Of a stretch of DNA of 64,000 nucleotides, positions 8,236 to 26,144 are shown piece by piece (the first letter of the stretch is position 1; each line of letters opens with the position of its first letter). The notes beneath the pieces are model-generated. The model did no database searches and was not told the DNA's origin. It saw only the letters and a program-made list of their open reading frames with translations. The stretch lies in the IMG/VR virus record IMGVR_UViG_3300022876_000002; one strand, 5' to 3'. The position numbers and the translations under genes were made by a program. The stretch comes from a virus. Its lineage: Duplodnaviria; Caudoviricetes.

Positions 8236-9183
8236 TTAATTGCTCTGGCTACCAGCGCCGGCAGTTGCGTTAGTGTGCAGGAGCATTGGCTCGCTGGCAC
8301 CGTGGTCGTAATCCATGTTGAGCATGGTGTTGTTCAGGGCACTACGGGCGTCACGCTCAGTGATGTAGTGGGCAGCAACAGCGCTACGCACTTCAGTGTA
8401 ACGTACGACACCAGCACCGCCGGTAACACCGTCAGTAATAGTATCTACACCCCAGCACTGCATTACCTCGTTGACGGCAGCGTAGCTGGCATCGTTGTAG
8501 AGGATACGGCAGGCGTTGGCCATCTCTTGCAGGTCACCTTGGTTCAGCGAGCAACCCAGGATACCCGAGGAGTTGATGTACGTGTTCGACAGCGCCACCG
8601 AACCTTCACTGGTGAAGTCGATTGGCTGTGGATTGAACAGGTCATCCCGCACCGGTACGTGTGGGGTAGCGGTCTCGTTACCGTTCTCGTCACGCACCAC
8701 CTTGGCAACCTGTGGGTTGTAGTTGGTGAAGTCGATCAGTTTCAGGTAGTAGAACACGTAGGAGTTACCGTCGTAACCGTTCTTTACCACACGCATGCGG
8801 TACTTGGCACGGTTGACGTTGTCCAGATCTTCGTTGATCGGACGGCAGATGAACGGGATGGCCGTGAACAGGTTCATGTCGGTCGGCTGGTGCTGGTTGA
8901 TTTTCATGCGGCTTACGCCCATGTTGTCAGAACCATTGCAGTTCGCACCGCGGATACCGACGCCGAAGTATTTCAACTCGAAGTCTTTGGCCGCTTTAGC
9001 ACCGATCGATTCAGTCGCCAGGATGTTGTACAGCTCGTTGAGCGTGGTGTAACGTGGCAGGTTGAAGCTCTGGCGAGTGGCCAGACACTTCATGATGATG
9101 TTACCCCAGGCAGTGTTGGTGGTAGTCTGGGTAGGTACTTCCGACCGGTTCTGGTCTTGTACGTCGGTGTTGGACAAAGCCAT
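8236..9183 (-). CDS. Virion structural protein (baseplate/collar; phiKZ gp139-like)
   Basis: 315 aa; LKYFGVGIRG and YVFYYLKLIDF motifs; position between RuvC and the baseplate gene. Confidence 0.6.
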   Translation of the reverse strand: MALSNTDVQDQNRSEVPTQTTTNTAWGNIIMKCLATRQSFNLPRYTTLNELYNILATESIGAKAAKDFELKYFGVGIRGANCNGSDNMGVSRMKINQHQPTDMNLFTAIPFICRPINEDLDNVNRAKYRMRVVKNGYDGNSYVFYYLKLIDFTNYNPQVAKVVRDENGNETATPHVPVRDDLFNPQPIDFTSEGSVALSNTYINSSGILGCSLNQGDLQEMANACRILYNDASYAAVNEVMQCWGVDTITDGVTGGAGVVRYTEVRSAVAAHYITERDARSALNNTMLNMDYDHGASEPMLLHTNATAGAGSQSN

Positions 9184-11737: not shown

Positions 11738-14700
11738 ATGTCCTACAGAGTGCGAGCGACGACGATAGGTAACCAGCGCGCTGACTATACTCAAATCAGC
11801 AAGAGCTTTACCAACCTACCGCCAGCTATTCAGTCAACGGTGCGAAACGCTGTACCACAAAACGGTCTCACACCTGAGAAAGGGGATATCGGTGGTACGG
11901 ATACAGTCAACCAATATAAACTGCAAAGGCTTAGTGACGTAATCAGTAACAACATCAATGCCGTAACCGACCTGCGGGCAATTACCCCGTATGTGGACAA
12001 AGCGGAGTTGATCTGGAACACCATTCTGCTGTACCCCAATGGTAAGCAGGAACGTATCCTCACCTATGACACTCTGCCGTCTCAGTTCAAGAACAACGCG
12101 TTGCACTTAGAACTGTTGAAGGTGTGGGAAGAATACTTCACCAACGACTATAGGATCGAGGAAGAACTCAGCAAAATTATCAACGATATCCTGTGGAATA
12201 CTGGGTCTTACGTGCTCTTTAACTTGAGCCGTCCTGGTCTGGATTACTTGATCAATGGTAGTGAGTTCGATCCAAAGAAAGCCCGTGAAGGTACCGAGGC
12301 TTTCATGGAATACCGCAACAAATCCCTGGAGGAGTTGCGTCGGGAATTCGTAGAGGTTAATGGTCAAGTCCGCGCCAAGAACATTGGCAAGATGATCCGC
12401 GACCCTAATGCACCTGAAAAATCCAAGGTGAGTGGTCTTGAAGCTATTCTTAGCGGCGGTACCACTGAGGCTGGGTTGGAATTCAACCTGTTCGGTAGTG
12501 ATGTGGACCCCGATAACGACATGGGGATCACCTTTACTGACAACCCGGCGGTGCTGTACTTCCAGAAACTCAAAGAGAAAGACCGGATCAACCATGCGCA
12601 CAATGTGATGGGTGCTGAGAACCTCGATCTGATGATCGACCAGTTGCTCACCCAGCCTGAGGCTAAGGATCCAAAAGATCCAATCACCGACAAGGATACC
12701 AAGGTAAGGCAGAAAAAGGCAGAGCCTTCGGAAGCTACCACCAAGAACCTTGACGAGCCCATGATCGCAGCTGCTGCGCGTGAGCTTTACCGTGCACGGA
12801 ACATCCATCACCAGTCGATGCAGTTCGTTAAGCCTATTGACACTCTGTCGGTAGCGCCTTACGGTCGTGGTCTTACTTGGCATATCCCTAGTGAAGCGGT
12901 AATTCCAATTCATTATAACGGTCAGAACAAGCGTCAGGGTGACTTCATTTTCCTGATCGATCCTGAGGAGGGTACCTTCCTCAAGAACACTGCTGACCCG
13001 GAATACTACCAGTCGGTCAACAAGACCAAGAACGGCATCGGCAATAAGAACAAGGCTGGTAGTGAGAACAACCTCATTAGCAGTCTGCGGGTGATCCAAG
13101 AAGGCAAGGAATGCGAATTCGACATGTCCGAATTCGTTGACATTGCCAAGAAGTCGATTATCAAGCAGTTCACTTCGGCTATTCTGAGCGACAAGGCTGA
13201 GAACATCAGCATCACTATTGACGAAGAGACCAACAAGATTTTCTTGAGCCGTCTGTTCCGTCGTCAAGGTGTGCGTTGCTTGTATGTGCCTGGTGAAGCC
13301 GTTACCTACATGGCTCTGAAATTCAGTCGTCTGGGTACTGGTCAGTCGTTGACTCAGCTGGCTAAGATGCACATCGCTCGTCTGGCTGCATTTGACGTAG
13401 CGGATGCTCTGGCTAACCTGGAGGCTGCTCAGCCTCACACGCTGATGACTCTGACTCACGGTAAGGAAGACGGGGATCCAAACAACACAGTCGCTATTGC
13501 GCGGGCTGCGTTCTACGATCAGAACCCTAAACTCCACTCGATGCTGGCCAGTGCCCAGCTGTCTGTCCCGTCGATTGTAAACGCCCTGAAAGACTCCTCG
13601 TTGACCGTTAAGATCAATGCTGGTGACAACCCGTTAGTGGCTGCTCCAGAAATCGACATGCAGCAAATGGAGAAAAACTATTTCAAGCCGGTGGCTGATG
13701 AGTCTCGTCAGAAGGTGTTGAACGATATCTCTAACTACTTCTTCACTCCTCGGAGTTGGTTGGACGTTAGTGACGATCAGAACAACTTCAAGATTGAGGC
13801 TATTACCGAACACGAGATGGTTACCAACCAGGCTGTTAACTGGCAAGCTGCGCTGGCTGAGTTCATTGTGGACTTCCAGAAGAAACACACCCGTGTTAAC
13901 GCTCCATTGCTTACTAAGCTGATTCAGTGCATCAAGGACAACAAGAAATACTGGAAGCCAGACAACGCTAAGGAAGCAATTGCTGGTGACGACGGCACGG
14001 TTATCAAGACCCTGCTGGCTGACTTCTTTGTAGGTGTTAAGGTTAGCTTCCCTGAACCTACCAGTATGGAAACCACTGACAAACTCAAGAACCAATTGGA
14101 CTCGATCCAGGCTCTGGTTGAGAAGTGGATGGAGATGGCCGGTGACGGCATTATCATGGATTCCATTGTTAAGACCTTGGGTCTCAATACGGAAATGGCT
14201 ACACCGGATGAGATCAACAAGCACGTGAAAGCTTACTTCTACGCGGAGGCCTTCAAGAAGTTCAACATCCCAATGCCGTTCGACGAGATCGTCAACGACG
14301 GTAAAGGTGGTGGTATTGCTTCGTTGGTACACGGTATCGTGCATCAGCAGGTCAACATGCAGGAGTTTGTGGTCGCTTACCTTACAGAGAAGCAGAAGGC
14401 TACCAAGGACTTCATTAAGAAGAACCAGACCAAGCTGCAGAAACTGTTTGATGAGCAACCTGAGGTACCAGAAGGTGAGCCACAGCTGGATGCTGACGGT
14501 AATCCGATTCCTGGTACTGAAGATGTTCCAGGTGACGACAACGCAGGTGGTGGGTACAATCCGTTTGGTGGGGATGCTCAGACGGATGATTCTGTACCTG
14601 GTGATGATGATGTACCTCCAGGGGATGATGACACCCCGCCTGGCGATGATTCTGGTGCTAGTGGTGACACACCTACAGAACCAGATGACGATGCTGGCGA

Positions 14701-14773
14701 TAGCGCCGGTGGTAAGGGTAGCAATGATCCAAGCTCCCCTAACTACGATCCGTTCACTGGCGGTAAGGCGTAA
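11738..14773 (+). CDS. Portal protein (phiKZ gp129 / SPN3US gp81-like)
   Basis: 1011 aa; opposite strand at the portal position; internal G-x-E sites (EGTE, SGLE, MGAE); long acidic P/G/D-rich C-tail. Confidence 0.65.
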   Translation: MSYRVRATTIGNQRADYTQISKSFTNLPPAIQSTVRNAVPQNGLTPEKGDIGGTDTVNQYKLQRLSDVISNNINAVTDLRAITPYVDKAELIWNTILLYPNGKQERILTYDTLPSQFKNNALHLELLKVWEEYFTNDYRIEEELSKIINDILWNTGSYVLFNLSRPGLDYLINGSEFDPKKAREGTEAFMEYRNKSLEELRREFVEVNGQVRAKNIGKMIRDPNAPEKSKVSGLEAILSGGTTEAGLEFNLFGSDVDPDNDMGITFTDNPAVLYFQKLKEKDRINHAHNVMGAENLDLMIDQLLTQPEAKDPKDPITDKDTKVRQKKAEPSEATTKNLDEPMIAAAARELYRARNIHHQSMQFVKPIDTLSVAPYGRGLTWHIPSEAVIPIHYNGQNKRQGDFIFLIDPEEGTFLKNTADPEYYQSVNKTKNGIGNKNKAGSENNLISSLRVIQEGKECEFDMSEFVDIAKKSIIKQFTSAILSDKAENISITIDEETNKIFLSRLFRRQGVRCLYVPGEAVTYMALKFSRLGTGQSLTQLAKMHIARLAAFDVADALANLEAAQPHTLMTLTHGKEDGDPNNTVAIARAAFYDQNPKLHSMLASAQLSVPSIVNALKDSSLTVKINAGDNPLVAAPEIDMQQMEKNYFKPVADESRQKVLNDISNYFFTPRSWLDVSDDQNNFKIEAITEHEMVTNQAVNWQAALAEFIVDFQKKHTRVNAPLLTKLIQCIKDNKKYWKPDNAKEAIAGDDGTVIKTLLADFFVGVKVSFPEPTSMETTDKLKNQLDSIQALVEKWMEMAGDGIIMDSIVKTLGLNTEMATPDEINKHVKAYFYAEAFKKFNIPMPFDEIVNDGKGGGIASLVHGIVHQQVNMQEFVVAYLTEKQKATKDFIKKNQTKLQKLFDEQPEVPEGEPQLDADGNPIPGTEDVPGDDNAGGGYNPFGGDAQTDDSVPGDDDVPPGDDDTPPGDDSGASGDTPTEPDDDAGDSAGGKGSNDPSSPNYDPFTGGKA

Positions 14774-14778
14774 ATAGC

Positions 14779-14835
14779 AAAAAAAGAAGTAACGTCTATA
14801 ACCCCTACCCAGCCATTGGCTGGGTAGGGGTTATA
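14779..14835 (-). terminator. Intrinsic terminator at a convergent junction
   Basis: Perfect 18-bp stem 14797-14835 with an A-tract at 14779-14785 (U-tract for minus-strand RNA). Confidence 0.8.
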
Positions 14836-14840
14836 TTTGC

Positions 14841-15269
14841 TTAACGTTTGATCTTGGTGAAATTCAAGCCGGTAAGTTCTTTAACGCCGTCGTCACCAAT
14901 GGTCACAATACGCATATGGAGATGTCCGTAGCCGTAGTAAGGCCCTTCCGTTGCACCGGTCTCGATATAGATGTAAATCTTGTTCCATGACTTGCCATCA
15001 ACGTGATGGTCCAGGGCATTTAACAAGCAAGCAGTAACACGATGTTCCAGATTGGGCGTACGCAACAAGGCTTTCGGCCAATTGCCTGCCCGACGAATAG
15101 CACGGAACTGCTTGGAGATTGGTTCCGGATCAACAAATGCGCTATCACCAACTTCAACAGCTTGTTTGAATACGTCGGTGCCTTTCACCAATATTGGGAA
15201 CTCGGTGAACTCGAACGGTTGTTCTTTACTGTCTTGTTCCAATAGCAGGTTCAATGCAAGTTTGGTCAT
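14841..15269 (-). CDS. Hypothetical accessory protein
   Basis: 142 aa, closely coupled to the upstream ORF. Confidence 0.7.
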   Translation of the reverse strand: MTKLALNLLLEQDSKEQPFEFTEFPILVKGTDVFKQAVEVGDSAFVDPEPISKQFRAIRRAGNWPKALLRTPNLEHRVTACLLNALDHHVDGKSWNKIYIYIETGATEGPYYGYGHLHMRIVTIGDDGVKELTGLNFTKIKR

Positions 15270-15270
15270 A

Positions 15271-15774
15271 TTAACTTACTCCGTGGATTTGTTCGTAAAT
15301 TACCCAGTCGACGCCACGTACTCTGATGTAGCGATGCGGGGCTGGTTCGTAAGGGTCTTCAGTAAAGATGACAGATAGTCGTCTGCTCATGTGCCCGCCA
15401 ACCAACAGGTTTTCTTCCATAAGACCCAACACTATTTCACGTGCCAGCTCTTTAGGCTTACGTCGGATAGCTTTGTCACCATTCAGTACTAATGGGTTAA
15501 GTATATCAGCGATGGCATTCACCATGCTAACCCCATTAGTATCATTAATGGCATTAAGGTCTATCTCGTACCAACTACCTGGTTCCTTGGGAGGTTTCGG
15601 TGTGGCCTTATCCAGCTCCTTAAGCCGCTGCACTAGATACTTCTTGAACTCAGGGCCAGAAGGTCGGGTGTCTTCACCAGATTTCTTGGTGGTGTCGTAG
15701 ACACTGTAATAAGACAGGAGCTCGGCGAGTTCAGTGAGTGTGAATTTGTCCAGTTTGTTCTTACACGGGGTCAT
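15271..15774 (-). CDS. Hypothetical accessory protein
   Basis: Start reassigned to ATG 15774 (GAGG upstream, TAATG overlap); 167 aa. Confidence 0.7.
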   Translation of the reverse strand: MTPCKNKLDKFTLTELAELLSYYSVYDTTKKSGEDTRPSGPEFKKYLVQRLKELDKATPKPPKEPGSWYEIDLNAINDTNGVSMVNAIADILNPLVLNGDKAIRRKPKELAREIVLGLMEENLLVGGHMSRRLSVIFTEDPYEPAPHRYIRVRGVDWVIYEQIHGVS

Positions 15775-16019
15775 TAAACATCTACCTCGTTTTGGATCTC
15801 CAAGCACAGAGCCCACTTCTCAGAACGGTTAGGGTCTGCTTTGATACCAGCCCCTGGAATAAATGCCAGCGATTCAGACATCATACCAGTTGGCCCGCGC
15901 GAGTTAACGCGCATCATTACCCCACCAGGTACTTTCATTACAGTTGTAGATTTTACTGGATAACCCGTGCCCTCTGTGACTAGAGGGTACCATTCGCCGC
16001 CTGGGAATTTATTAGCCAT
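15774..16019 (-). CDS. Small hypothetical protein
   Basis: 81 aa; GGAG 8 nt upstream of ATG. Confidence 0.7.
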   Translation of the reverse strand: MANKFPGGEWYPLVTEGTGYPVKSTTVMKVPGGVMMRVNSRGPTGMMSESLAFIPGAGIKADPNRSEKWALCLEIQNEVDV

Positions 16020-16036: not shown

Positions 16037-16063
16037 AAAAAAAGAAGGACTCCGAAGAGTCCT
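16037..16063 (-). terminator. Intrinsic terminator with cUUCGg loop
   Basis: AGGACUC-UUCG-GAGUCCU followed by UCUUUUUUU on the minus strand. Confidence 0.8.
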
Positions 16064-16091
16064 AAGGGGAAACAGCGCTAGCTGTTTAGGA

Positions 16092-16162
16092 GGGTTACCT
16101 AGCACACAGTCTTAGGACCGAAGTCCAATGCCCTAAAGCAGGCGTCGTATGCTAGGTAACCC
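16092..16162 (-). ncRNA. Candidate structured RNA (three-way junction) in the 3' UTR of the 335-aa gene
   Basis: 16-bp closing stem with one U-G pair, enclosing GCCU-GCUUUA-GGGC and GGAC-UUCG-GUCC hairpins. Confidence 0.5.
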
Positions 16163-16169
16163 AAACTCG

Positions 16170-17177
16170 TTAAACTTTCAAGTGGCTGTATGGGAAAGGT
16201 ACATCAAACATTTCCCACATCTTGGAAAGGACACCCTTCATACTTTCCAGATTGGCCAATTGTACTGTTAGTGAATTACTAGGACCTTGCGCGTTGCGGT
16301 AGCAGGCGCCCGGAACAGTGGTGAGTACCCAGGTGAAGAACTCCAGCGTAAGGACTGTTTCGAAAGCTTTCTCTGCGGATTGCAGAAGGACAGATTCCGA
16401 CCAGGACCGGTTGCCGGTTTTAACCAGGTCTTCAAACAAAAAGTGGGCGAACACTGTAGAGGCCGTGGTAGCCATTGCAGTATTAAAGGTGTGATCCGAC
16501 TCAGCCCAGCACAGAAACTCTTGTCGAGCTTCCAGTTGGTCACGGTAGTCAGTGTCAGTAGCGAATTGCTTTTTAGTCTTTGCGTAGATCCCGGTAAATA
16601 TCCCGGGGATGCGCTTAGCTATGCTGACGGAAAAGGAAACCACTGGCTCGCTAATCAATACCATAATTGTTGTTTTACGAGCTTCCGATATCCCTACAAC
16701 TTTGACCTCGCCATTCAGTACGCTTTCCATCATGTCTTTACGGACATTAGAAAGCTCTGCCTCCGTGCGCTGTGGCTCAACGGCCTCGAGCGAAGTTACT
16801 TCCGGCACCAGCTTGCCATCAACCAGGTAATGGATATTTTCCAGTGTACCGCAGGTGTGGATCTGGTCTACCTGCGCTACGTTGTAGTTGGTGATACCTT
16901 GTTCCAGAGTAGTGCCGTTCATGCACTTCACCACACCACCAACGGACTCACGAGATACGTGAGGGAAACCACGCTCGTCCAGGTACAGACGGTTGAGCGA
17001 GAAATAGATCGAGCGGCACAGCACGACTGGGATGCGGGACTCGCCTTTAACCAGTTCTGCGATGCCAGCTACAGTCATACCGCTAGCGCCATTGTTGTGG
17101 TCATCCAGGATACGACCCGAAGTGTGGTTAACGGCGTCAACGATTGCTGCGAAATTGTTTACGTTGTTCATGGACAT
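16170..17177 (-). CDS. Chimeric hypothetical protein (N-half paralog of the 160-aa gene, C-half paralog of an internal domain of the 798-aa gene)
   Basis: 335 aa; visible alignments to both neighbours, including a shared SKMWEMFDVPFPY. Confidence 0.75.
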   Translation of the reverse strand: MSMNNVNNFAAIVDAVNHTSGRILDDHNNGASGMTVAGIAELVKGESRIPVVLCRSIYFSLNRLYLDERGFPHVSRESVGGVVKCMNGTTLEQGITNYNVAQVDQIHTCGTLENIHYLVDGKLVPEVTSLEAVEPQRTEAELSNVRKDMMESVLNGEVKVVGISEARKTTIMVLISEPVVSFSVSIAKRIPGIFTGIYAKTKKQFATDTDYRDQLEARQEFLCWAESDHTFNTAMATTASTVFAHFLFEDLVKTGNRSWSESVLLQSAEKAFETVLTLEFFTWVLTTVPGACYRNAQGPSNSLTVQLANLESMKGVLSKMWEMFDVPFPYSHLKV

Positions 17178-17237
17178 TTCCTTAATATAATAATTGGTGT
17201 TGGTGGTCCCCTATGGACCACCGTACACGTGTAACAG

Positions 17238-17720
17238 TTAGAAGCTTGCGTGACCGATTTTAGCGCGACGTGCTTCATCGATGATGAATGCCGCTGCAGT
17301 CATTTCAGCTACTTCACCTTCTTCGAAGAGTTTGACTGGAACCAGTTGGCCCAGGCGCATCTTGTAGAAGTTGGTGAGGAAAGCAGTACCGTGTTCGTTG
17401 GTAGCATGAGTGGTATTGTAAGTTACTACCGACTCGCGCAGATCCACCGGAACCAATCCGCCAAATACTGGCTTCATGTCACGGAACATCAACCCACCGA
17501 CCGACCGACGGGACAGACGCACTTTACCATCTTTGAGGTAAACCTCATTAAGGGTGAAGTGTTCTTCGTCGAAAAGGCCAACTGGGGTTACAACACCGTC
17601 ACGATGCAGCAGCGCAATGCCGCTTACCATTGCACGGGTGATAGGGTCGTTGTCATCGCCAATGAAACCGTGGGCTTCATTAACAGCTTTGACAATTGCA
17701 GCGTAGTCATAGTTAGACAT
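17238..17720 (-). CDS. Hypothetical protein, paralog of the N-terminus of the 335-aa gene
   Basis: 160 aa; YAAIVKAVN...GIA.L...PV.L......F.LN..YL...G...SR.SVGG shared; AAGGAG upstream. Confidence 0.75.
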   Translation of the reverse strand: MSNYDYAAIVKAVNEAHGFIGDDNDPITRAMVSGIALLHRDGVVTPVGLFDEEHFTLNEVYLKDGKVRLSRRSVGGLMFRDMKPVFGGLVPVDLRESVVTYNTTHATNEHGTAFLTNFYKMRLGQLVPVKLFEEGEVAEMTAAAFIIDEARRAKIGHASF

Positions 17721-17773
17721 GGTGAACTCCTTAGAAGATTTAGTAATCCAAATGAATTACTGTTCTTATTCAC

Positions 17774-17795
17774 CCTAGTTATATAGATCTGAGAT
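17774..17795 (-). promoter_or_regulatory. Candidate phage promoter motif, copy 1
   Basis: ATCTCAGATCTATATAACTAGG; 16/22 identical to 23112-23133; lies between a hairpin and the next gene. Confidence 0.35.
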
Positions 17796-17823
17796 TGTGT
17801 AGAAATTAAAATTACGGAATAGA

Positions 17824-17854
17824 CCCCTACCCACCCGTTAAGGGTGGGTAGGGG
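17824..17854 (-). terminator. Terminator-like hairpin after the 798-aa gene
   Basis: 13-bp stem CCCCTACCCACCC / GGGTGGGTAGGGG. Confidence 0.7.
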
Positions 17855-17888
17855 CTATCTCTAAACTAATTGCGCAATTAACTCAGTA

Positions 17889-20285
17889 TCAATTAACGCC
17901 CATTACCACGAGTGGCTTATCGGTATCCACATGACGCAACGTGGCCACGTTACGGTCACCACCGACATAGCTGAACAACCAGACGTGACCCGACGCAGCA
18001 TAACGCAACAGATGGTCTTTGTGGACTTCTGCAGTCGCTGGTGCTTCCGGATCTTCTACCACGATTTCCATGAGCTTGAACAACTCAGGGAACTTACTAC
18101 GTTTAATGTACAACGGCACATTAAACTCTTCGTGGTACGGGCCTTTGTCGTTGACCAGGTTGGCCATGTAGAACTCACGTACTACATACAGGTCGACGTC
18201 GTCCTTGAGTTTCTCGATGACACCCATCTCTTCAGGCGGGATACCGTGCGGGTTAACTTTGTGGAACATACGCAGGTTACGGGTCAGGTAGTTGGATACC
18301 GCACCGTCGGTCAGCAGACCGTAAGCCTGGTCATCGTTCTTTTGGAGCTCGTTGGCCAGGTCTTCGATGTCAGACACGAAGTTGCCAATCTGCAGTTTAC
18401 CGCCACCGCCTTTTCCGTCCACAGCATTGTAGCCGCAGACGTTTACCAACCATTCATTCACAATGGCGGTCATACGGCTGTTGATAAACCCAGCTACGTT
18501 GTTGTCGATAACGTTTTCGTTGAACAGGCGACGCAGGTGCTTACCGGCATTCAGTACCGACGGACGCTCGTTGTCTTTCAACTCGGCATCGCTGAACAGG
18601 TAAGGTGCATCTTGGAACAGGCGAGTTTTGTCTTCTGGCTTGACGCAGCTGAAAACATCCCACTCGACCAGGGTGTCGAACACTACTGCAGCTTTGTTGT
18701 CTTTGAACTTGGAAGTCAGACGATCAGTGATCAGTTTGACGTTCTGCATCAGCGCAGTAGTCTTCTGCTCAACGATTGGTTCGTCTACTACGATAGCCGG
18801 GATACCAGCACCCAGCTCTTTAATACGCTCGACGTCTACTTCCAGCTTTTTCTCGTCTTTTACTACGTCAGCCATCGGAGCGGCAACAACCATATACAGG
18901 TCGCCTTCGTTCTCTGGCTTCTCCAGGAGCGGTAGGAGCACTTCTGGGTTACTGAACACACGTGCCACATCGAGACCCTCAGCTCGCACGGCATGGCTGA
19001 ACCAGCCGTCGTTGTTATCGAAATCGATCACGACTACGCGATAGCAATCGCGCAGCAGACCTTCCTCTTGACGCATTTCTGGGTGACGTTTGAAGACCTT
19101 CTGGATTTTGCGCCAGTCGGTTTCCGGGATGAAGTAATGATTGTCACGACCGATCGGCTTGAAGAAGCGACGCAGGTTGTAATCCTGCATGTTCTCCCGC
19201 GTAAGGTTGTCGAAATCATTACGAGTAGTACCCCAAGTCATACTCACCTCATTATCAAAATTTGGTTGGCTAGCGGCCGGTTTAGGTGCGGGTTCATGGT
19301 AGTATTCCCCACGCCTGGATGCAACATTACGATCCACCATTGCATTGATTGATTCATAGTCCGAATTGGTGTAGGCCTGGTCGCGTTTGGCTTGTGGGAT
19401 GTACCCGATGTAATCGCCATAACGGTCTGGGTCAAACACCCGTGCATGTTCCACCGGAGTGGAGACTGCATTGGAGAACGACAGTGACGCATAAGGAAAC
19501 GGTACATCAAACATTTCCCACATCTTGGAGAACTCTTCCTTAATAGTCTCCAAGTTGTTCAACTGCAGTTCCAGCTTTTTCGGGAGCCGGTGTGTATATG
19601 AAACGCCCTTCTTGGTGTTAAACAGCCAGTTGAGGAACTCCAGGAACAGTGCCTGGTAGCATGCGATCTCCGATGCGTTGTTGAAGTCGGCTTCGGACCA
19701 TTGTTCCTTACCAGACTTCCGCATGTTCTCGATCAACAGATAACCGAAAATGACACCACCGTTAATTGCTGCTGTTTGGTGGAAAGAAGGAAGTTTATTA
19801 ATGTCATCAATAAACTCTTTCTTGAGCGGGCAGATCTGGCCAGTGTCCTGGTCAACCGTGAACTGCTCCTTCATTTTCTGGTAGTTCTTGTAAAAGAACG
19901 TAGGTTGACGACGAACCATGTGTTGCATAAACACGGTCATCGGATCTTCTACTTTACCGATGTAATACTCGATGGTATCTTGGGAGATCCCACCGTTCTC
20001 TAGCATCCCTGCTAGAACCTCGTTTTGCTCTAGTCCGCCACCGTGGTGCTTCCAGTTGAAACCACCACCTGCCCCTGTAGTGGCTGCGCTACTAGCAACC
20101 CCTGCAAGGAAGTTCTTAATAGCTTGACCAGGGATGATTTGCTGGTGGAGTTGCGCGCCTTGCAGCCCTCCCATCCCAGCAGCCTGACGGCCATCTGATT
20201 GAGGAGGGTCGGCGTTCAAGTTCACCGATCCGGGGCGTGAACCACCAAAGCCACCGAGACCAGTTGGTTTAATCGATCCGACCAT
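17889..20285 (-). CDS. Large hypothetical protein coupled to the nvRNAP beta-N gene
   Basis: 798 aa; Gly-rich N-terminus; start overlaps the end of the RNAP subunit gene. Confidence 0.75.
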   Translation of the reverse strand: MVGSIKPTGLGGFGGSRPGSVNLNADPPQSDGRQAAGMGGLQGAQLHQQIIPGQAIKNFLAGVASSAATTGAGGGFNWKHHGGGLEQNEVLAGMLENGGISQDTIEYYIGKVEDPMTVFMQHMVRRQPTFFYKNYQKMKEQFTVDQDTGQICPLKKEFIDDINKLPSFHQTAAINGGVIFGYLLIENMRKSGKEQWSEADFNNASEIACYQALFLEFLNWLFNTKKGVSYTHRLPKKLELQLNNLETIKEEFSKMWEMFDVPFPYASLSFSNAVSTPVEHARVFDPDRYGDYIGYIPQAKRDQAYTNSDYESINAMVDRNVASRRGEYYHEPAPKPAASQPNFDNEVSMTWGTTRNDFDNLTRENMQDYNLRRFFKPIGRDNHYFIPETDWRKIQKVFKRHPEMRQEEGLLRDCYRVVVIDFDNNDGWFSHAVRAEGLDVARVFSNPEVLLPLLEKPENEGDLYMVVAAPMADVVKDEKKLEVDVERIKELGAGIPAIVVDEPIVEQKTTALMQNVKLITDRLTSKFKDNKAAVVFDTLVEWDVFSCVKPEDKTRLFQDAPYLFSDAELKDNERPSVLNAGKHLRRLFNENVIDNNVAGFINSRMTAIVNEWLVNVCGYNAVDGKGGGGKLQIGNFVSDIEDLANELQKNDDQAYGLLTDGAVSNYLTRNLRMFHKVNPHGIPPEEMGVIEKLKDDVDLYVVREFYMANLVNDKGPYHEEFNVPLYIKRSKFPELFKLMEIVVEDPEAPATAEVHKDHLLRYAASGHVWLFSYVGGDRNVATLRHVDTDKPLVVMGVN

Positions 20286-21936
20286 TGTTAATTTCTCTCG
20301 TTTTGAGTCGCTTCTCTGCTTTAGCGTAACGCTCCGCGTGCTTAGGGTTCAAGCCGGTAACTTTGCCGTGCAGGAAGATACAAGGTAAAAGATACGCCCG
20401 TCCGTCTGGACATGGTGAGGACACCTTGAGGTGACTGTTCACAAACAGTTGGGAAGCGTGGATATGCGTGGAGGAATCCCCGGCATCGAAATCACCCTTC
20501 TTACGGTTCTTAGACGAACTGGTGAACACCTTATCTTGAGGAATACAACCCAACATATAGTCAACAAACGGAACGTCTGTCGGAGTGGCTTCCTGGATCA
20601 GGTTGGTAGTACGGGCATTGTCGATCTCTTTAGCGTGGAACCTGCTATTGAGGAATCGCGATACCTTCTTCTGGCTCAACTCAGAATTGTTCTTGATATC
20701 GTGCTTGAAGTTGTTCGCTGCTGTGATCAACTTATCCATGGTGAACTCCAGTGACGAGAGTTCTTTGTGGAACATGGACGCACGATCGGTGGTTTGCACG
20801 ATCTCACTACGGTTGGTGATAATGTAGTTGAAGAGATCGAAGATGTCGTTAGCTTCGATATCCTGGTTGCGGAACTTCTTGATGGAGTCCTCATCCAGGT
20901 AATCGTTGATGGAATCAAAGTGGTTATACATCAACCGCATGATAGCTTCGTTGGAATCCCCGCTCTTAACCGAAGTACGTCCGATCAAAAGCTTCCAATA
21001 GTCCGGGTCATCAATCCGTTCTACATCAAAGTAACTGCCCATACAGTCAATAACGAACTGCAGAGAAGCAGCGTACTGCAAACCGAGGTTGTTGAGGGTC
21101 TTACGTGTAGGTGAGACATTGCGCAAAGCAATACCCAGATCCTGCACTACGGTTTCCCCCAGGTACTTGTGGTTATCTGCCTTGGACCGTGTGATAATCT
21201 CCCAACGGTCTTTTGCACGGCAGTCGCTCAGCAATGCATCCACTGGGCCCAACTCGTACTCACACTCACCATAGCGTCGCATGGCCTCTGTGAAGCCAAT
21301 GTTGGCAAACACGTACCACGCTAGCAACGGGATTGGAACTGTCTTGCTAGTGATCTTCCTGGCGGCTGTAGGGCTATAGAACCGGTTGCACGCCAAGTTG
21401 ATACTTGCAGTGGACGTCAATACCTGATGACCATGCTGGAATACGTAATCGTAGTTGAAGTTTTCTGTTCCGATTTTGAACTTGAACCCCAGTACTTTCA
21501 CGAACAGCGAGTTCTCCTTAGTAACAGGAAGCCCCCGCTCAGCCAGTACAATTTGCAGACTATAGTGCACACCACGCAACCAGATATCACCATACTTGTC
21601 ACAGTACGGCAACATGGTGTACGCATGCATTCGGATCATTTGACCCGACTTATCCTGGTAGTCGATTGCCAACTTGACAGGATAGATAGTCTCCTTGTGA
21701 ATATCGTAGATCTTCGTACTCGAGTTGATCAAGTAGTCGATATACTCACGAGGTGGTACTTTGGTCACTCCCCTGAAAAACACTCCACGTGACTCAATGC
21801 TCTTAAAGATGATGCGAAGCGCGTTCTCGTAGTAGCGCAAAGCACCCTCAAACTCTTTCTGGTGGAAACCCTCCATAATCGTCTGATTGAACTTTGGATA
21901 CTTTTCTTTGATGCGGTCCGCGAGTACGTGAAACAT
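20269..21936 (-). CDS. rpoB: Non-virion RNA polymerase beta subunit, N-terminal part (phiKZ gp123-like)
   Basis: YPKFNQTIMEGF, TMLPYCDKYGDIWLRGVHY, IHASQLFVNSHL..SSPCPDGR..LLP motifs; position two genes after the capsid gene; start reassigned to ATG 21936; uninterrupted. Confidence 0.75.
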   Translation of the reverse strand: MFHVLADRIKEKYPKFNQTIMEGFHQKEFEGALRYYENALRIIFKSIESRGVFFRGVTKVPPREYIDYLINSSTKIYDIHKETIYPVKLAIDYQDKSGQMIRMHAYTMLPYCDKYGDIWLRGVHYSLQIVLAERGLPVTKENSLFVKVLGFKFKIGTENFNYDYVFQHGHQVLTSTASINLACNRFYSPTAARKITSKTVPIPLLAWYVFANIGFTEAMRRYGECEYELGPVDALLSDCRAKDRWEIITRSKADNHKYLGETVVQDLGIALRNVSPTRKTLNNLGLQYAASLQFVIDCMGSYFDVERIDDPDYWKLLIGRTSVKSGDSNEAIMRLMYNHFDSINDYLDEDSIKKFRNQDIEANDIFDLFNYIITNRSEIVQTTDRASMFHKELSSLEFTMDKLITAANNFKHDIKNNSELSQKKVSRFLNSRFHAKEIDNARTTNLIQEATPTDVPFVDYMLGCIPQDKVFTSSSKNRKKGDFDAGDSSTHIHASQLFVNSHLKVSSPCPDGRAYLLPCIFLHGKVTGLNPKHAERYAKAEKRLKTREINNGRID

Positions 21937-21955
21937 CCTTTTATCCCCAAATGTG

Positions 21956-23083
21956 TTAAGTCGTAAAGAATCTAATACCCGCAAAAAGCAAACCAGAGAT
22001 AGCAGCCAAACCTTTCAACAAATCTACGCCGAAGGACATCTTGGTTTTCTGCTTCATCTGATCTATTGCATGTTTGTCCCGTGCCTCACGACGCTTTGAA
22101 TCGTCTTTGAGCCTGAGGATCTCTTCCTTATTACTAAAGTCAACACGTTCTCTTTTATCCTCGGCCGCCTTGAACTCTTGTTTGAGTCTGGCCAAATCCA
22201 TTTGATGGGACTGCTTCAGATGTACTAGCTGGAGATCCAGTTTTTCTATCTGACGATTCGCCCCGTCTAAACGGATATTAGTATCGTCCAGTAGTTTAAT
22301 TTTACTATCTAGCGCTTTAGACAGCGAATTAGCCTTAGCCTCAGCTTCTTGATACCTTTCGGTATTACCATTTAACATGGCTTCTGCTTTGCTCTGGAAG
22401 ATGCCGAGCCCTTCTAGCCTGCCTTTCGACAAGTCATCAAAACTATATAATGAAGCCACCGGTGGGTTTGTACCGACCGATACTCCGATATACAGCCCTG
22501 GCGTAGCTTGTGGATCGTCAGCTACTGGCACTTCAGTAGCACGACCACCAATGTTTACGTAGAAGGGTTTCTGTGTTTTACGCGGATCGATTACATATGC
22601 ACAGTAACTGATCGAGCATCGCGGATTGCTACGATGCAGTTGGTCCAGGGCCTCGGTAAGACTCGACTCGGGGACGTTGAGTGGAGCCCTATCGATATTG
22701 CCACGACCACTGTACATGGTGAAGCCAAACATCTCACTGTGGATCGCACCGTGCTCATCAGCCAGGTGTGCTCCCAAGTGTACTACGAAATTAGCAGAGC
22801 TAGGAAAATCTTGATAGAAGTCTACGTTGTCACGCAGGGTCTTCACTTTAGCTGCCATTTCTTCCAACACTGCCCGATCAAACTTGGTCAGTGCTTGTGA
22901 AGGATCTACTTGGATTTCTTTAACCTTGAAGTTTTGGAAGGACACTCGAACGTATTGTTCTTTGTTATATGTCGCTTCTGCGCTCTTTGGGATGATGTAT
23001 CGCAGACCACCTTTGTGGGCTACAACCAAATCGAAAGAAGTACTGTTATTTACGACTTCACGTTCAAGCTTGAAAGTTGCCAT
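21956..23083 (-). CDS. Conserved hypothetical protein (phiKZ gp122-like) with coiled coil and C-terminal hydrophobic anchor
   Basis: 375 aa; heptad-rich residues about 250-345, then GVDLLKGLAAISGLLFAGIRFFTT at the C-terminus. Confidence 0.7.
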   Translation of the reverse strand: MATFKLEREVVNNSTSFDLVVAHKGGLRYIIPKSAEATYNKEQYVRVSFQNFKVKEIQVDPSQALTKFDRAVLEEMAAKVKTLRDNVDFYQDFPSSANFVVHLGAHLADEHGAIHSEMFGFTMYSGRGNIDRAPLNVPESSLTEALDQLHRSNPRCSISYCAYVIDPRKTQKPFYVNIGGRATEVPVADDPQATPGLYIGVSVGTNPPVASLYSFDDLSKGRLEGLGIFQSKAEAMLNGNTERYQEAEAKANSLSKALDSKIKLLDDTNIRLDGANRQIEKLDLQLVHLKQSHQMDLARLKQEFKAAEDKRERVDFSNKEEILRLKDDSKRREARDKHAIDQMKQKTKMSFGVDLLKGLAAISGLLFAGIRFFTT

Positions 23084-23111: not shown

Positions 23112-23133
23112 CCTGATAATTTAGGTCTGAAAT
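23112..23133 (-). promoter_or_regulatory. Candidate phage promoter motif, copy 2
   Basis: ATTTCAGACCTAAATTATCAGG; downstream of the capsid terminator and upstream of the gp122-nvRNAP operon. Confidence 0.35.
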
Positions 23134-23308: not shown

Positions 23309-25507
23309 TTAAGGGTTTTTTGCTTCGATCGCCTCAACAACTTTGTCCAGGCCAGCTTCCAGGCCGAGGATCTCGACTTTCTGTTTCGCCAGCTTGGTCA
23401 GCAGACCTTCGTCACCCAGGAACTTGGCAGCGTCGGTGATCTTCAGCGAGCCGATGATCGGGTTCAGCGCCCAGTGCTTGTAGGTAGGCATGGTCATGAC
23501 CACACCGTAGTCTTGCTGCTCACGAGTCACGTTACCTTGAACAACGATGTTCTCTTTCGAGACCACAACGCCGACACCGCCCAGAGGGTTGATGAAGTCG
23601 CTGGTGGAGTTGTTCTTGGTGACGATCAGGATCTCGCCGATCTGGCTGTCGAAGTTGGTTTCGATAGCGGTCATGTTGACCATCGAGCCCAGGGTACGAG
23701 CATCACCAGTCTTCATCAGGAAGCGACGCAGGTTCTGGTGAACGATGATGTTCCACTCAGGAGCAGTGGTGCCACCGTATTCAGCGATCGCAGCGATACC
23801 GGACTTGGTGACCAGCGCCGAGGTGATGTCGGACAGTTCGTTGGTGAACACGGCCGATACAGCTTCGAAGATGCCGGTGCTGTCTTGAACCGAGACCACG
23901 TCTTCCAGGGTGATGGTACGGTTGACGGCCGAAGCAGTCACGTAGTGCATACCTGGCAGAACGTTGGAACCCTGGTTGTTCGACACAACTGGGTGACCGT
24001 CGATCGAGGTGATGTACTTCAGGTGTTCGTGAGCCATGTCGAAGGCTTTCTTCGAGCACTGGTTGTTGATCACCACCGACATCTGCTGGATGGCGTAGTC
24101 CAGGGAGTCCTGGTTCACGTCGTCTTTGGAGATCGGGTACTTCACGGAGACCGGCGAACCACGGTGTACCGACAGGTGCTTGTCAGCGTCGAACACTTCG
24201 ATGCGGTAGCCGAAGTTACCACGGTTCAGGTTGTTGACGTTGGCCGAGGTCTTGACACCGGTGACCGAACCTTTGGTCAGCAGCTTGAACAGGGCTTTCT
24301 CATCTTCGCTGGCGCGGCCGCGATCGATGACGTTGCCGGAGGCGATGTGGCGCAGAGCGGAGATGGTCAGTTGACCACCGTTCAGGCGCATCACGTTCTT
24401 CTGGCGTTGGAAGTTGCCGTTCATCGACACGTCGAGCAGCGGCTGGTAGCCAGCAGCTTTGATGTCAGCGAACAGGGTCTCGCCGACCAGGTTGCCTTCT
24501 TTGTCCAGCAGGGTGAAACCGTTGTGCTGGTTCAGCAGCATGCCCAGCTGACGGTCATCGGAACCCTGGCCGTTGGTGGTCGGGTTGAAGGTGTTGTTCG
24601 ACATTGCTTTGGTGTTCACGAAGAACACTTTCTCAACGCCGCCGATGGTGGCAGTCAGTTGCAGCGCTTCGACGGTGATCGAGTTGGACTCGATTTCGTC
24701 GGTGCTGGTCCAGGCGCGCTGGCCAGGAGCCTGGCAAAGACCCAGGTAGTTCGGGATCACCGAAGGAACCTTGAGGTAGTTGGTCAGGTGGTTTTCACGA
24801 CCGTAGGCATCGGCTTCCATGTAGGTAGCTGGCCATGGGGTCATGGTGGCTTTGTCGACGAACAGCTCGAGGGTGTCGTCGTCAGCGTCTTCCGGGAACA
24901 CCGGGTGGATGGACAGGACGTCGTCCTTGTACATGTCACCGGTACGCAGCAGGCCGAAGATCGGCTTCAGGTCGGAAGCTTGCTGCCAGGCGCTGTTGCC
25001 GTAGGCGTAGGTACCCAGGCCGGCCGCACGGACTTTCAGCAGAGCGCCTTCGTCTTCGTAGCGAACGGTGATGGTGCTGAACAGGGCCTCGGCTGCAGGG
25101 GTCTGCAGGTGGCTCTGGGCGTTCAGGGTCATGTTGGCGGCTTTGATGTCGACTTCCGAACCGCGGAAGTTCTGCATCGAGAAGCCTTCCAGACCACCTA
25201 CGGTGCTGTAGTAGTCTTCGGTCTTGGCGACGATGTCGACCAGCTCACCACGTGGGATGGCTTCGGAACGAGCCATGGCGCTTTGGAAAGCGGCATAGGT
25301 CTTGTCGGTCAGCTTGTCTTTCAGCGCGCTTTGCAGGCTGGCGCTTTCGTTGCCCTGCACTTGGGACAGGCCGAAGTTGCTGGAGAAGTCGTTGAAAGCT
25401 TCGTTACCTTGTACCGCTTGGAAACCGTTGGTAGCAACGGCTTGTCGGATCATGTGAAAGAGGTTGCCCTCGTTCTTCAGACCAGTTTTGATCGCTTTAT
25501 AGGCCAT
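23309..25507 (-). CDS. Major capsid protein (phiKZ gp120-like)
   Basis: 732 aa from ATG 25507 (AAGGA upstream); very strong C-ending codon bias; probable propeptide cleavage GGLE|GFSMQNF; position next to gp119-like and DnaB. Confidence 0.9.
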   Translation of the reverse strand: MAYKAIKTGLKNEGNLFHMIRQAVATNGFQAVQGNEAFNDFSSNFGLSQVQGNESASLQSALKDKLTDKTYAAFQSAMARSEAIPRGELVDIVAKTEDYYSTVGGLEGFSMQNFRGSEVDIKAANMTLNAQSHLQTPAAEALFSTITVRYEDEGALLKVRAAGLGTYAYGNSAWQQASDLKPIFGLLRTGDMYKDDVLSIHPVFPEDADDDTLELFVDKATMTPWPATYMEADAYGRENHLTNYLKVPSVIPNYLGLCQAPGQRAWTSTDEIESNSITVEALQLTATIGGVEKVFFVNTKAMSNNTFNPTTNGQGSDDRQLGMLLNQHNGFTLLDKEGNLVGETLFADIKAAGYQPLLDVSMNGNFQRQKNVMRLNGGQLTISALRHIASGNVIDRGRASEDEKALFKLLTKGSVTGVKTSANVNNLNRGNFGYRIEVFDADKHLSVHRGSPVSVKYPISKDDVNQDSLDYAIQQMSVVINNQCSKKAFDMAHEHLKYITSIDGHPVVSNNQGSNVLPGMHYVTASAVNRTITLEDVVSVQDSTGIFEAVSAVFTNELSDITSALVTKSGIAAIAEYGGTTAPEWNIIVHQNLRRFLMKTGDARTLGSMVNMTAIETNFDSQIGEILIVTKNNSTSDFINPLGGVGVVVSKENIVVQGNVTREQQDYGVVMTMPTYKHWALNPIIGSLKITDAAKFLGDEGLLTKLAKQKVEILGLEAGLDKVVEAIEAKNP
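23315..23321 (-). other. Candidate -1 frameshift heptamer A-AAA-AAC at the end of the capsid gene
   Basis: ...GCA AAA AAC CCT TAA; hairpin begins 6 nt downstream. Confidence 0.4.
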
Positions 25508-25592
25508 GGAAGGAATTCCTTGCAGACGTAGGACAAACAAACAAATGCATTTGTTGTGTATTTGGTGCTACACATACAATGTATTTATTTAA

Positions 25593-26144
25593 TTAGGGGT
25601 TTTGGATACCAAGTAGCTTGTAAACCACTGCCAGAGAGAACTCTCCGGTGCGCGGTTCTGGGATAGCGCCGAAATGACTTTCCATGTAGCCCTTGCAGTG
25701 GGTAATCATCTCGAGCAAAGCACCAGAGAAACACGTAGCCTCTGCACAGACCCAGCCCGGCAAAGGTTTGTCGTCTTCCTCTGGGTGTAACGCCAACACC
25801 AGGACGTTCTGCCCAGCATTGATATAAGAGAAACAACGAGTACCGTGGATCACTTCGGATAAGTTACTACCGTCGACACTATTAAATGCCTCGCGTAGCA
25901 TACCACCTTCGTAATCCTTGGAGAACAACATATCAGGTTCGAGCATGGGCACACCCATCTCTTGAGCCGCCTGATATTGGAACTTGAAGAACTGGGCAAG
26001 CTCAGGCCACATCAACTTTTGATGATATGTCTCAATTGCTACCAGTTCCCTCAAAGGAATTGACATCCGATCCAGCAGTCGTACGAACTGGCTGGGCAGA
26101 TAAAATACATGAACCGAAGGCCCATTAGGGGTCCTGAGAATCAT
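25593..26144 (-). CDS. Head protein (phiKZ gp119-like)
   Basis: 183 aa, between DnaB and the capsid gene; GGAG upstream. Confidence 0.65.
   Translation of the reverse strand: MILRTPNGPSVHVFYLPSQFVRLLDRMSIPLRELVAIETYHQKLMWPELAQFFKFQYQAAQEMGVPMLEPDMLFSKDYEGGMLREAFNSVDGSNLSEVIHGTRCFSYINAGQNVLVLALHPEEDDKPLPGWVCAEATCFSGALLEMITHCKGYMESHFGAIPEPRTGEFSLAVVYKLLGIQNP

Follow-up and report, generated by a model that had tools for sequence, protein, structure and literature searches.

The 64,000-nt stretch of viral DNA analysed here (the window; IMG/VR virus record IMGVR_UViG_3300022876_000002, Duplodnaviria, Caudoviricetes) carries a chimeric gene on its minus strand. The product joins a module that recurs in other phage proteins, here called the N-module, to a diverged copy of the N-terminal domain (NTD) of the 798-aa protein encoded two genes upstream. 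The source of the window is a nucleus-forming phiKZ/EL-like jumbo phage with a genome of ~242 kb, and the 798-aa protein is the ortholog of JADA (Pa36 gp316, phiKZ gp124). Sequence comparison with related phages indicates that the chimera is a precise replacement of the second N-module of a tandem (N+N) gene by the whole JADA NTD. It is tentatively read as a trans-acting mimic of the JADA NTD, an adaptor and/or competitor that may modulate JADA-linked early events; this reading is given a probability of about 0.4.

The genes and domains concerned are as follows, with relatives given by their handles (L007, L012 and so on):

16170..17177, minus strand: chimeric gene (P0001), 335 aa from the first ATG; open reading frame intact in the window, L012, L013 and L014
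16773..17177, minus strand: N-module of the chimera, residues 1-~135; ortholog of module 1 of the relatives' second gene, 83% identity to the first N-module of the L007 second gene
16692..16772, minus strand: linker, residues ~136-162, common to the N+N allele; homology breakpoint at its end
16173..16691, minus strand: diverged JADA NTD copy, residues ~163-335; BLASTP E 1e-30, NTD profile hidden Markov model (HMM) E 1.4e-31
16188..16226, minus strand: SKMWEMFDVPFPY motif, its peptide identical to that of the parent (parent copy at 19491-19529)
17238..17720, minus strand: 160-aa single N-module gene (P0002; gene 1 of the accessory island), N-module HMM E 3.6e-38
17889..20285, minus strand: 798-aa ortholog of JADA, phiKZ gp124 and EL gp81 (P0003), phrog_13213 E 1e-107
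19482..19988, minus strand: parent domain, the helical NTD of the JADA ortholog, residues ~100-268; eight helices, AlphaFold2 (AF2) pLDDT ~80

The two halves of the chimera and their relatives

A first-pass annotation of the window had aligned the N-half of the 335-aa protein with the neighbouring 160-aa protein and its C-half with residues ~115-270 of the 798-aa protein. Both similarities are significant. By BLASTP, residues 8-125 match residues 5-128 of the 160-aa protein (35% identity, E 5e-14), and residues 153-333 match residues 90-268 of the 798-aa protein with 34% identity and only 2 gap positions over 181 residues. The parental segment begins at ~90-100 and not at 115. The 160-aa and 798-aa proteins have no similarity to one another by BLASTP. 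A profile HMM of the NTD of the 798-aa family, from which the chimera was left out, covers the C-half from HMM position 19 to 176 of 177. The proposal of a two-part chimera with a domain from a conserved gene that overlaps an RNA polymerase subunit gene is therefore borne out by BLASTP, by the HMM and by a 17-nt overlap.

The copied segment is the whole folded JADA NTD and nothing else, beginning at the first helix and ending five residues past the PFPY motif that closes the domain. There is no JADA linker and no sequence like the C-terminal domain (CTD), as the protein ends at this point. Since the linker and the dimeric CTD are missing, the chimera is not a JADA but only a carrier of the NTD copy. 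AF2 models were made of the N-module alone and of the 798-aa parent. The N-module of the chimera is modelled as a compact alpha/beta fold of ~125 aa (pLDDT 90.3). The chimera has no significant functional match in PADLOC, Pfam or PHROGs, and none to a defence or anti-defence family.

In a phmmer search of 1.84 billion representatives, the C-half was found only in proteins of ~780-800 aa and in a single cluster, that of the chimera itself (P0001/P0004). P0004 (98% identity) is the one near-identical chimera in the protein database. The fusion of an N-module to a JADA NTD is, as judged from sequence, unique to this cluster in the databases searched. An HMM scan of the window found no further copies of the N-module or of the JADA NTD.

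The start of the chimera is probably the second ATG, at 17171, which gives a protein of 333 aa. The Shine-Dalgarno sequence AAGGA (17179-17183) favours this start, with a spacing of 7 nt to the second ATG as against 1 nt to the first, as do the relatives, which are called from MNNVNN. The coordinates first assigned to the region (16170-20285) stand, while the length of 335 aa is the less likely one.

In Pa36 and phiKZ, the only phages for which these properties are known, JADA has been described as an essential, early and abundant protein that is found at early-infection (EPI) vesicles (Mol Cell 2026, PMC12931631). Its N-terminal domain is joined by a long flexible linker to a C-terminal domain that forms dimers (PMC12931631). 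Avs5, a bacterial immune system, is triggered by the C-terminal domain of Pa36 JADA, while the N-terminal domain alone neither triggers nor dimerises; three Avs5 clades have been validated as triggered by JADA (PMC12931631). The 798-aa protein has a Gly-rich disordered N-terminus, a helical NTD, a disordered linker and a CTD. In the AF2 model residues 1-100 are disordered and Gly-rich, residues 100-268 are helical, residues 271-366 have pLDDT <50, and a larger mixed alpha/beta C-terminal part follows. The best Foldseek match of this model is PDB 9RP3, 'Avast type 5 activator, Gp316, JADA jumbophage protein'. VIA-align superimposes model residues 541-705 on residues 512-635 of the 9RP3 chain with Z 10.4 and a root-mean-square deviation of 2.5 A over 119 aa, the runner-up having Z 5.2; the CTD with this fold is well modelled in part only. 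By hhalign, a 14-member alignment of the 798-aa family matches the phiKZ-type gp124 of phage fnug with E 8e-6. When fnug gp124 is aligned with RAY gp4 and the PCH45 homolog, the match to that alignment spans 135 columns with E 2.7e-6. The hhalign and 9RP3 matches fall on one collinear segment of the 798-aa protein.

Gene order agrees with this assignment. The phiKZ order of major capsid protein (MCP) gp120, gp121, gp122, gp123 (non-virion RNA polymerase, nvRNAP) and gp124 is also that of the window, where a 375-aa gene is gp122-like. The 798-aa gene is directly downstream of the nvRNAP-subunit gene on the same strand, as it is in EL, phiKZ-like fnug, RAY and PCH45. EL gp81 has 30% identity to the 798-aa protein with matching synteny, and its NTD is found by the profile with E 5.7e-19 (hhalign). 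Given the synteny, the 9RP3 match, the hhalign match and an architecture in which a disordered linker separates NTD and CTD, the 798-aa protein is taken to be the JADA ortholog.

The nvRNAP-subunit gene is located as follows:

20269..21984, minus strand: nvRNAP subunit gene, 571 aa, of the phiKZ gp123 / EL gp80 type, phrog_2943 E 1.7e-145

By tblastn its product matches annotated nvRNAP beta/beta' subunits in RAY, RisingSun and phiKZ-like phages. The end of this gene and the 798-aa gene overlap by 17 nt (20269-20285), also in L007 and L012, which suggests translational coupling. A relationship of the JADA NTD to sigma-28 region 2 (1sc5, FliA/FlgM complex; Z 5.2, 81 aa) was set aside, being below the chance level for helical bundles. 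This likeness is weak and non-significant, and is of interest only through the coupling of the gene to the nvRNAP subunit.

The N-module family comprises ~88 representative clusters of 105-375 aa, with the matching residues at ~5-125. The module occurs singly, in tandem, or fused at either end to other uncharacterised domains (e.g. phrog_26096, phrog_11827). A single N-module protein is also encoded in EL (gp161, 159 aa), ~70 kb from gp81. No usable fold relatives of the N-module were found in the PDB (Foldseek; best Z of a wide VIA search 3.0), the ESM Atlas (TM <0.4) or a language-model atlas, and its fold matches in BFVD are to uncharacterised jumbo-phage proteins only.

Origin of the copied domain and exchange of the island

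The N-half of the chimera had been thought to be a copy of the neighbouring 160-aa gene. It belongs instead to a second gene that was already present. In a tree of the modules, the orthologs of gene 1 (the 160-aa type) from all relatives form one clade with support of 98/100. Since in this tree the N-half of the chimera groups apart from the gene-1 clade, with module 1 of gene 2, it and the 160-aa gene are ancient paralogs without recent copying between them. Both types are found in relatives with as little as 57-76% identity in the 798-aa protein.

Three proteins of 245-275 aa match the N-half of the chimera only, and continue into a second N-module. The 275-aa N+N gene is found in L007 (242,882 bp) in synteny identical to that of the chimera. 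The DNA of the window is ~99% identical to that of L007 in the genes for the 375-aa protein, the nvRNAP subunit and JADA, and returns to this level from 16066 on. Identity is lower (74-90%) in the first N-module and the 160-aa gene. DNA homology stops near 16699, and there is none over ~16100-16700, a cassette of ~600 nt. At the protein level, P0005 and the chimera are co-linear up to ...MESVLNGEVKV(V/I)G and divergent after it. This linker end happens to resemble the JADA sequence just before its NTD (...NEVLAGMLENGG).

The modules behind JADA differ among relatives. There are none in L016, two single N genes in L015, L018 and L017, and a single plus a tandem N+N gene in L007, G001 and L008; the proteins P0006 and P0007 are likewise N+N. 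A single N-module gene with the chimera is found only in the window, L012, L013 and L014, so that most relatives carry the 798-aa gene without the fusion, a comparison that the first-pass annotation had called for. Outgroup comparison places the arrangement of two single genes as ancestral and that of a single and a tandem gene as derived, with the chimera arising by replacement of the second N-module. The tandem gene arose in one sub-lineage. On these comparisons the chimera came about by replacement of the second module of an N+N gene, and the suggested assembly by two local duplications is not supported.

The NTD is present in every JADA ortholog, including EL gp81, and the chimera is one cluster among the 1.84 billion representatives; the direction of copying is therefore from JADA to the chimera. 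In a maximum-likelihood tree the NTD copy is nested in the clade of P0003, P0096, P0098 and P0099 with support of 96/97. Its identity is highest to the resident clade (32-34%), lower to the next group of orthologs (26-29%) and lowest to the most remote (24-25%). In the DNA of the SKMWEMFDVPFPY motif, the first 29 nt are of the resident JADA type at positions where L015, L018 and L016 differ synonymously, while the last four codons all differ synonymously from the resident JADA. These sequence patterns favour a local or near-local source of the copy, followed by a burst of divergence and perhaps a small conversion patch. Within the identical motif, only the first 29 nt could owe their identity to recent gene conversion, as each of the four codons that follow has a synonymous difference.

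The two accessory genes form an island of ~1.5 kb bounded by terminator hairpins, as identified by a terminator scan and RNA folding:

17818..17859, minus strand: strong terminator-like hairpin right after the JADA stop, the left anchor of the island; fold -34.3 kcal/mol, z -6.6; identical in L007 and L012
17741..17787, minus strand: 47-nt conserved upstream element, a putative promoter/5' untranslated region (UTR), with a Shine-Dalgarno site; nearly identical in the window, L007 and L012, with variable flanks
16037..16162, minus strand: structured RNA after the chimera stop (three-way junction, hairpin, and UUCG terminator at 16046-16063), the right anchor of the island; fold -58 kcal/mol, z -5.7
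16150..17690, no strand: recombinant tract, 98-99% identical to L012 by three-way sliding identity and base-level alignment

Bases 16098-16020 of the right anchor are conserved in the window, L007 and L012. The backbone of the window is 99% identical to L007 and ~93% to L012, whereas the recombinant tract is only 29-90% identical to L007. The island is thus, to judge from the alignments, one that reached this genome by recombination from an L012-like lineage. A recent local duplicate, as first supposed, does not fit with this, nor with the 34% identity of the copy to its parent, which is too low. The chimera allele is a rare one, carried between lineages by homologous recombination at the conserved borders of the island. 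The region just behind JADA is in this sense a recombining accessory hot spot in the clade, and the chimera is a clear case of a core-gene domain taken up by an accessory module.

RNA-library contigs, the ends of which break at this point, place a second copy of the 47-nt upstream element ~65 kb away in the genome; the element may be a promoter/5' UTR common to another accessory unit. A motif of the EL promoter type upstream of the island has partial likeness only, its 3' half is not conserved among relatives, and it is not claimed. Between the 160-aa gene and the chimera (17178-17237) there is a 9-bp GC-rich hairpin (GGTGGTCC-ATAG-GGGACCACC) with no U-tract.

The cassette is complete in at least nine soil metatranscriptome runs, in contigs of up to 135 kb equal to the window. 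Carry-over of phage DNA, or derivation from the window's own source sample, is possible for these contigs, and their depths are unfit for ranking genes. In four of the soil runs a minor second allele of the 160-aa gene (17204-17727) co-occurs at ~5-12% of the contig depth of the window allele, differing from it by 22 differences in 208 nt and by diverged stretches.

Retained residues and the probable role of the domain copy

Between the chimera genes of the window and L012 there are 14 synonymous differences and 5 non-synonymous ones (omega 0.106); of these, 9 and 5 fall in the linker and C-half (omega 0.159, binomial p 0.001). This purifying selection indicates that the chimera is functional. 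That it is a neutral or transient by-product of recombination, without function, is considered extremely improbable. The gene is indeed rare, with one protein cluster and few contigs, and the accessory islands of phages do accumulate junk mosaics. A by-product would however not be expected to have an intact reading frame in four independent contigs and to be complete in so many runs, nor to have omega values (0.11, and 0.16 for the C-half) significantly below neutrality. The exact domain boundaries and the spread of the allele between lineages via recombination also speak against it.

The copy retains 21 of the 37 positions that do not vary among 14 JADA orthologs, compared to 26% identity at the variable columns. 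The kept positions are those of the aromatic/hydrophobic core together with W256, F259, F263, P264, Y265 and L268, and the motif WEMFDVPFPY is conserved in the NTD copy. Nearly all of the invariant basic residues are lost (K111L, K156Q, K225V, K226P, R233A). On this pattern the copy resembles a separation-of-function form of the JADA NTD. The first-pass annotation had proposed an adaptor, decoy or dominant-negative regulator; with the parent now identified as JADA, a known trigger of Avs5, these candidate roles become more relevant.

Because the core and the terminal motif are kept, the linker and dimeric CTD are absent, and the basic residues are lost, the copy would most likely still bind the partner or site of the motif face of the JADA NTD, and the chimera would not carry out any JADA C-terminal function. 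Such a mimic would either tether the N-module to the site of action of JADA, the early-infection vesicles, or compete with JADA for this partner, or do both.

Several points weigh against the mimic. The branch leading to the NTD copy has ~3.9 substitutions per site in the maximum-likelihood tree, and with such divergence the retained fold could serve a new, unrelated function. In approximately unbiased (AU) tests, p is 0.44 for a source outside the close clade and 0.38 for a grouping with EL, and lies between 0.23 and 0.44 over the alternatives; as none of these placements is rejected, an unsampled distant donor is possible. The AF2 model of the 798-aa protein is poor outside residues 100-265 and 550-700 (overall pLDDT 53). 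The NTD profile of its clade has no match in the first 300 aa of fnug gp124, RAY gp4 and PCH45 (hhalign E 0.2-0.8). The equivalence of this NTD to the 'NTD' of Pa36 JADA is architectural only, since there is no detectable sequence similarity, and findings on the Pa36 domain may not carry over to the EL-like clade. The contigs from RNA libraries are no measure of transcription or of its timing, and the mechanism itself is inferred from the retained residues.

The same divergence is consistent with a neofunctionalised scaffold, in which the copied helical domain has diverged to a role unrelated to JADA, the motif is kept for folding, and the gene is one more N-module variant. The copy has only 34% identity to its parent with most of the conserved charged residues gone, the kept positions are mostly aromatic or hydrophobic as those of a core would be, and N-modules elsewhere are fused to unrelated domains (phrog_26096, phrog_11827). 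This explanation is nevertheless thought to be rather unlikely. All 13 residues of the motif are identical to those of the parent, and the copy matches the boundaries of the domain exactly. The motif is at the end of the domain beside a flexible linker, a position that is typically exposed. Loss of the basic class while another surface element is kept is more like subfunctionalisation than drift.

The position of the chimera also raises the possibility of an immune decoy or shield, in which the JADA-like domain intercepts a host sensor of JADA, or masks JADA, and so blunts Avs5-like STAND immunity. Triggering by JADA has been validated for three Avs5 clades, and the sensing takes place at early-infection vesicles (PMC12931631). 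The chimera is in a hypervariable, recombining, moron-like island right behind JADA, a pattern typical of conflict genes, and two alleles co-occur in samples. This reading is weakened because the N-terminal domain of Pa36 JADA does not trigger Avs5; activation is via the C-terminal domain, not the NTD alone (PMC12931631), and the chimera has no CTD-like part. Together with the lack of a PADLOC, Pfam or PHROGs match to a defence or anti-defence family, this makes a decoy improbable.

A dominant-negative action against co-infecting relatives is held to be more improbable still. The mimic would block the partner site for the JADA of superinfecting phages, and the resident would be spared by timing or dosage. 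Close lineages do co-occur and recombine in samples, the mimic keeps the clade-specific form of the motif, and full JADA is essential (PMC12931631). The motif is however identical to that of the resident JADA, so that self-inhibition would be expected, and no such system of chimalliviruses is described in the literature searched. More broadly, a counter-immunity or conflict device made from the phage's own immune trigger, with the NTD mimic acting in trans and carried on a hypervariable N-module, might shield, mislocalise or out-compete JADA at the early-infection vesicle, blunting Avs5-like sensing or excluding co-infecting relatives. This too is improbable. If true, it would be the first phage to duplicate part of its own pathogen-associated molecular pattern (PAMP) protein as a decoy or regulator.

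The reading of the chimera as a mimic of the JADA NTD is retained as the preferred one. JADA is a common trigger of Avs5 immunity to nucleus-forming jumbo phages, and the gene represents a natural, selected, stand-alone-like copy of this domain of it and a ready-made separation-of-function variant. Comparison of the retained and lost residues, W-x-x-F-x-x-x-F-P-Y against the K/R patch, points to those that matter, and the L007-type genomes, with a backbone 99% identical and the N+N gene in place of the chimera, are natural isogenic controls.

Surrounding genes and comparison with known systems

The order of genes on the minus strand is MCP, 375-aa, 571-aa RNA polymerase subunit, 798-aa, 160-aa and 335-aa, followed by genes of 81, 181 and 142 aa. 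The MCP is of the PhiKZ type:

23309-25540, minus strand: MCP gene, PF25620 match (Pfam, E 2e-135)

A megablast search with the locus found no match in annotated phages. The nearest annotated genome is that of Pseudomonas phage EL, in which the order of MCP gp78, gp79, gp80 'polymerase' and gp81 matches that of the window.

The sequence TTTCAGACCTAAATTAT (23116-23132, minus strand) resembles the 19-nt 'putative phage promoter' annotated in EL, ATTTTAAACCTACATTATC. It is located between the MCP and 375-aa genes, which corresponds to its place in EL, and these ~22 nt are found again elsewhere in the genome, as seen in the contigs. With the motif ahead of the 375-aa gene, as it is in EL, the genes for the 375-aa protein, the nvRNAP subunit and JADA would make up one unit and the island a second one.

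The MCP region from 24001 to 26000 has a GC content of 0.555, compared to ~0.49-0.51 in the remaining window. A second hypervariable patch is present at 14570-15275. The 142-aa gene (14841-15269) is absent from L012 and has 55-87% identity in L007, and the 1011-aa virion protein (ending at 14773) has a variable acidic, Pro/Gly-rich C-terminal tail. For the 81-aa gene just after the island (15774-16019), the L015 ortholog (8774-9019) has a weak precomputed Pfam match to PF26760 'Lockin'.

It is ordinary for phages to shuffle domains and to have accessory islands that recombine. A paralog or partial copy of JADA is not described in the JADA paper (PMC12931631) or in other literature found. The 798-aa parent is like the JADA of Pa36 and phiKZ in its position behind the nvRNAP-subunit gene, its strand, its similar length and its layout of N-domain, linker and C-domain, and part of the C-domain is alike by fold and profile. 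In the chimera, by contrast, only the NTD-like domain is present, joined to an N-module that is unrelated to it; the linker is missing, as is the dimeric C-domain that activates Avs5.

In EL, gp81 is the nearest annotated ortholog of the 798-aa protein and gp161 is a single N-module protein, all of these being annotated as hypothetical. Unlike in the window, gp81 is not followed by N-module genes in EL, and there is no fusion.

MicroProteins and dominant-negative copies of single domains, such as the Id proteins and LITTLE ZIPPER, are a eukaryotic concept. By analogy, the chimera is likewise a paralogous copy of a putative interaction domain of a multidomain regulator, without the effector domain, and could titrate partners. 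It differs in that the copy is fused to another module and does not stand alone, and in the biological system.

Phage morons and hypervariable accessory islands are exchanged by homologous recombination at conserved borders. The island described here resembles these in its terminator bounds, in having its own upstream element, in the variation from 0 to 3 modules among near-identical genomes, and in a phylogeny discordant with that of the backbone. It differs from them in that the promoter is only putative, and in that the cargo is not foreign DNA but a domain copied from the adjacent essential core gene.

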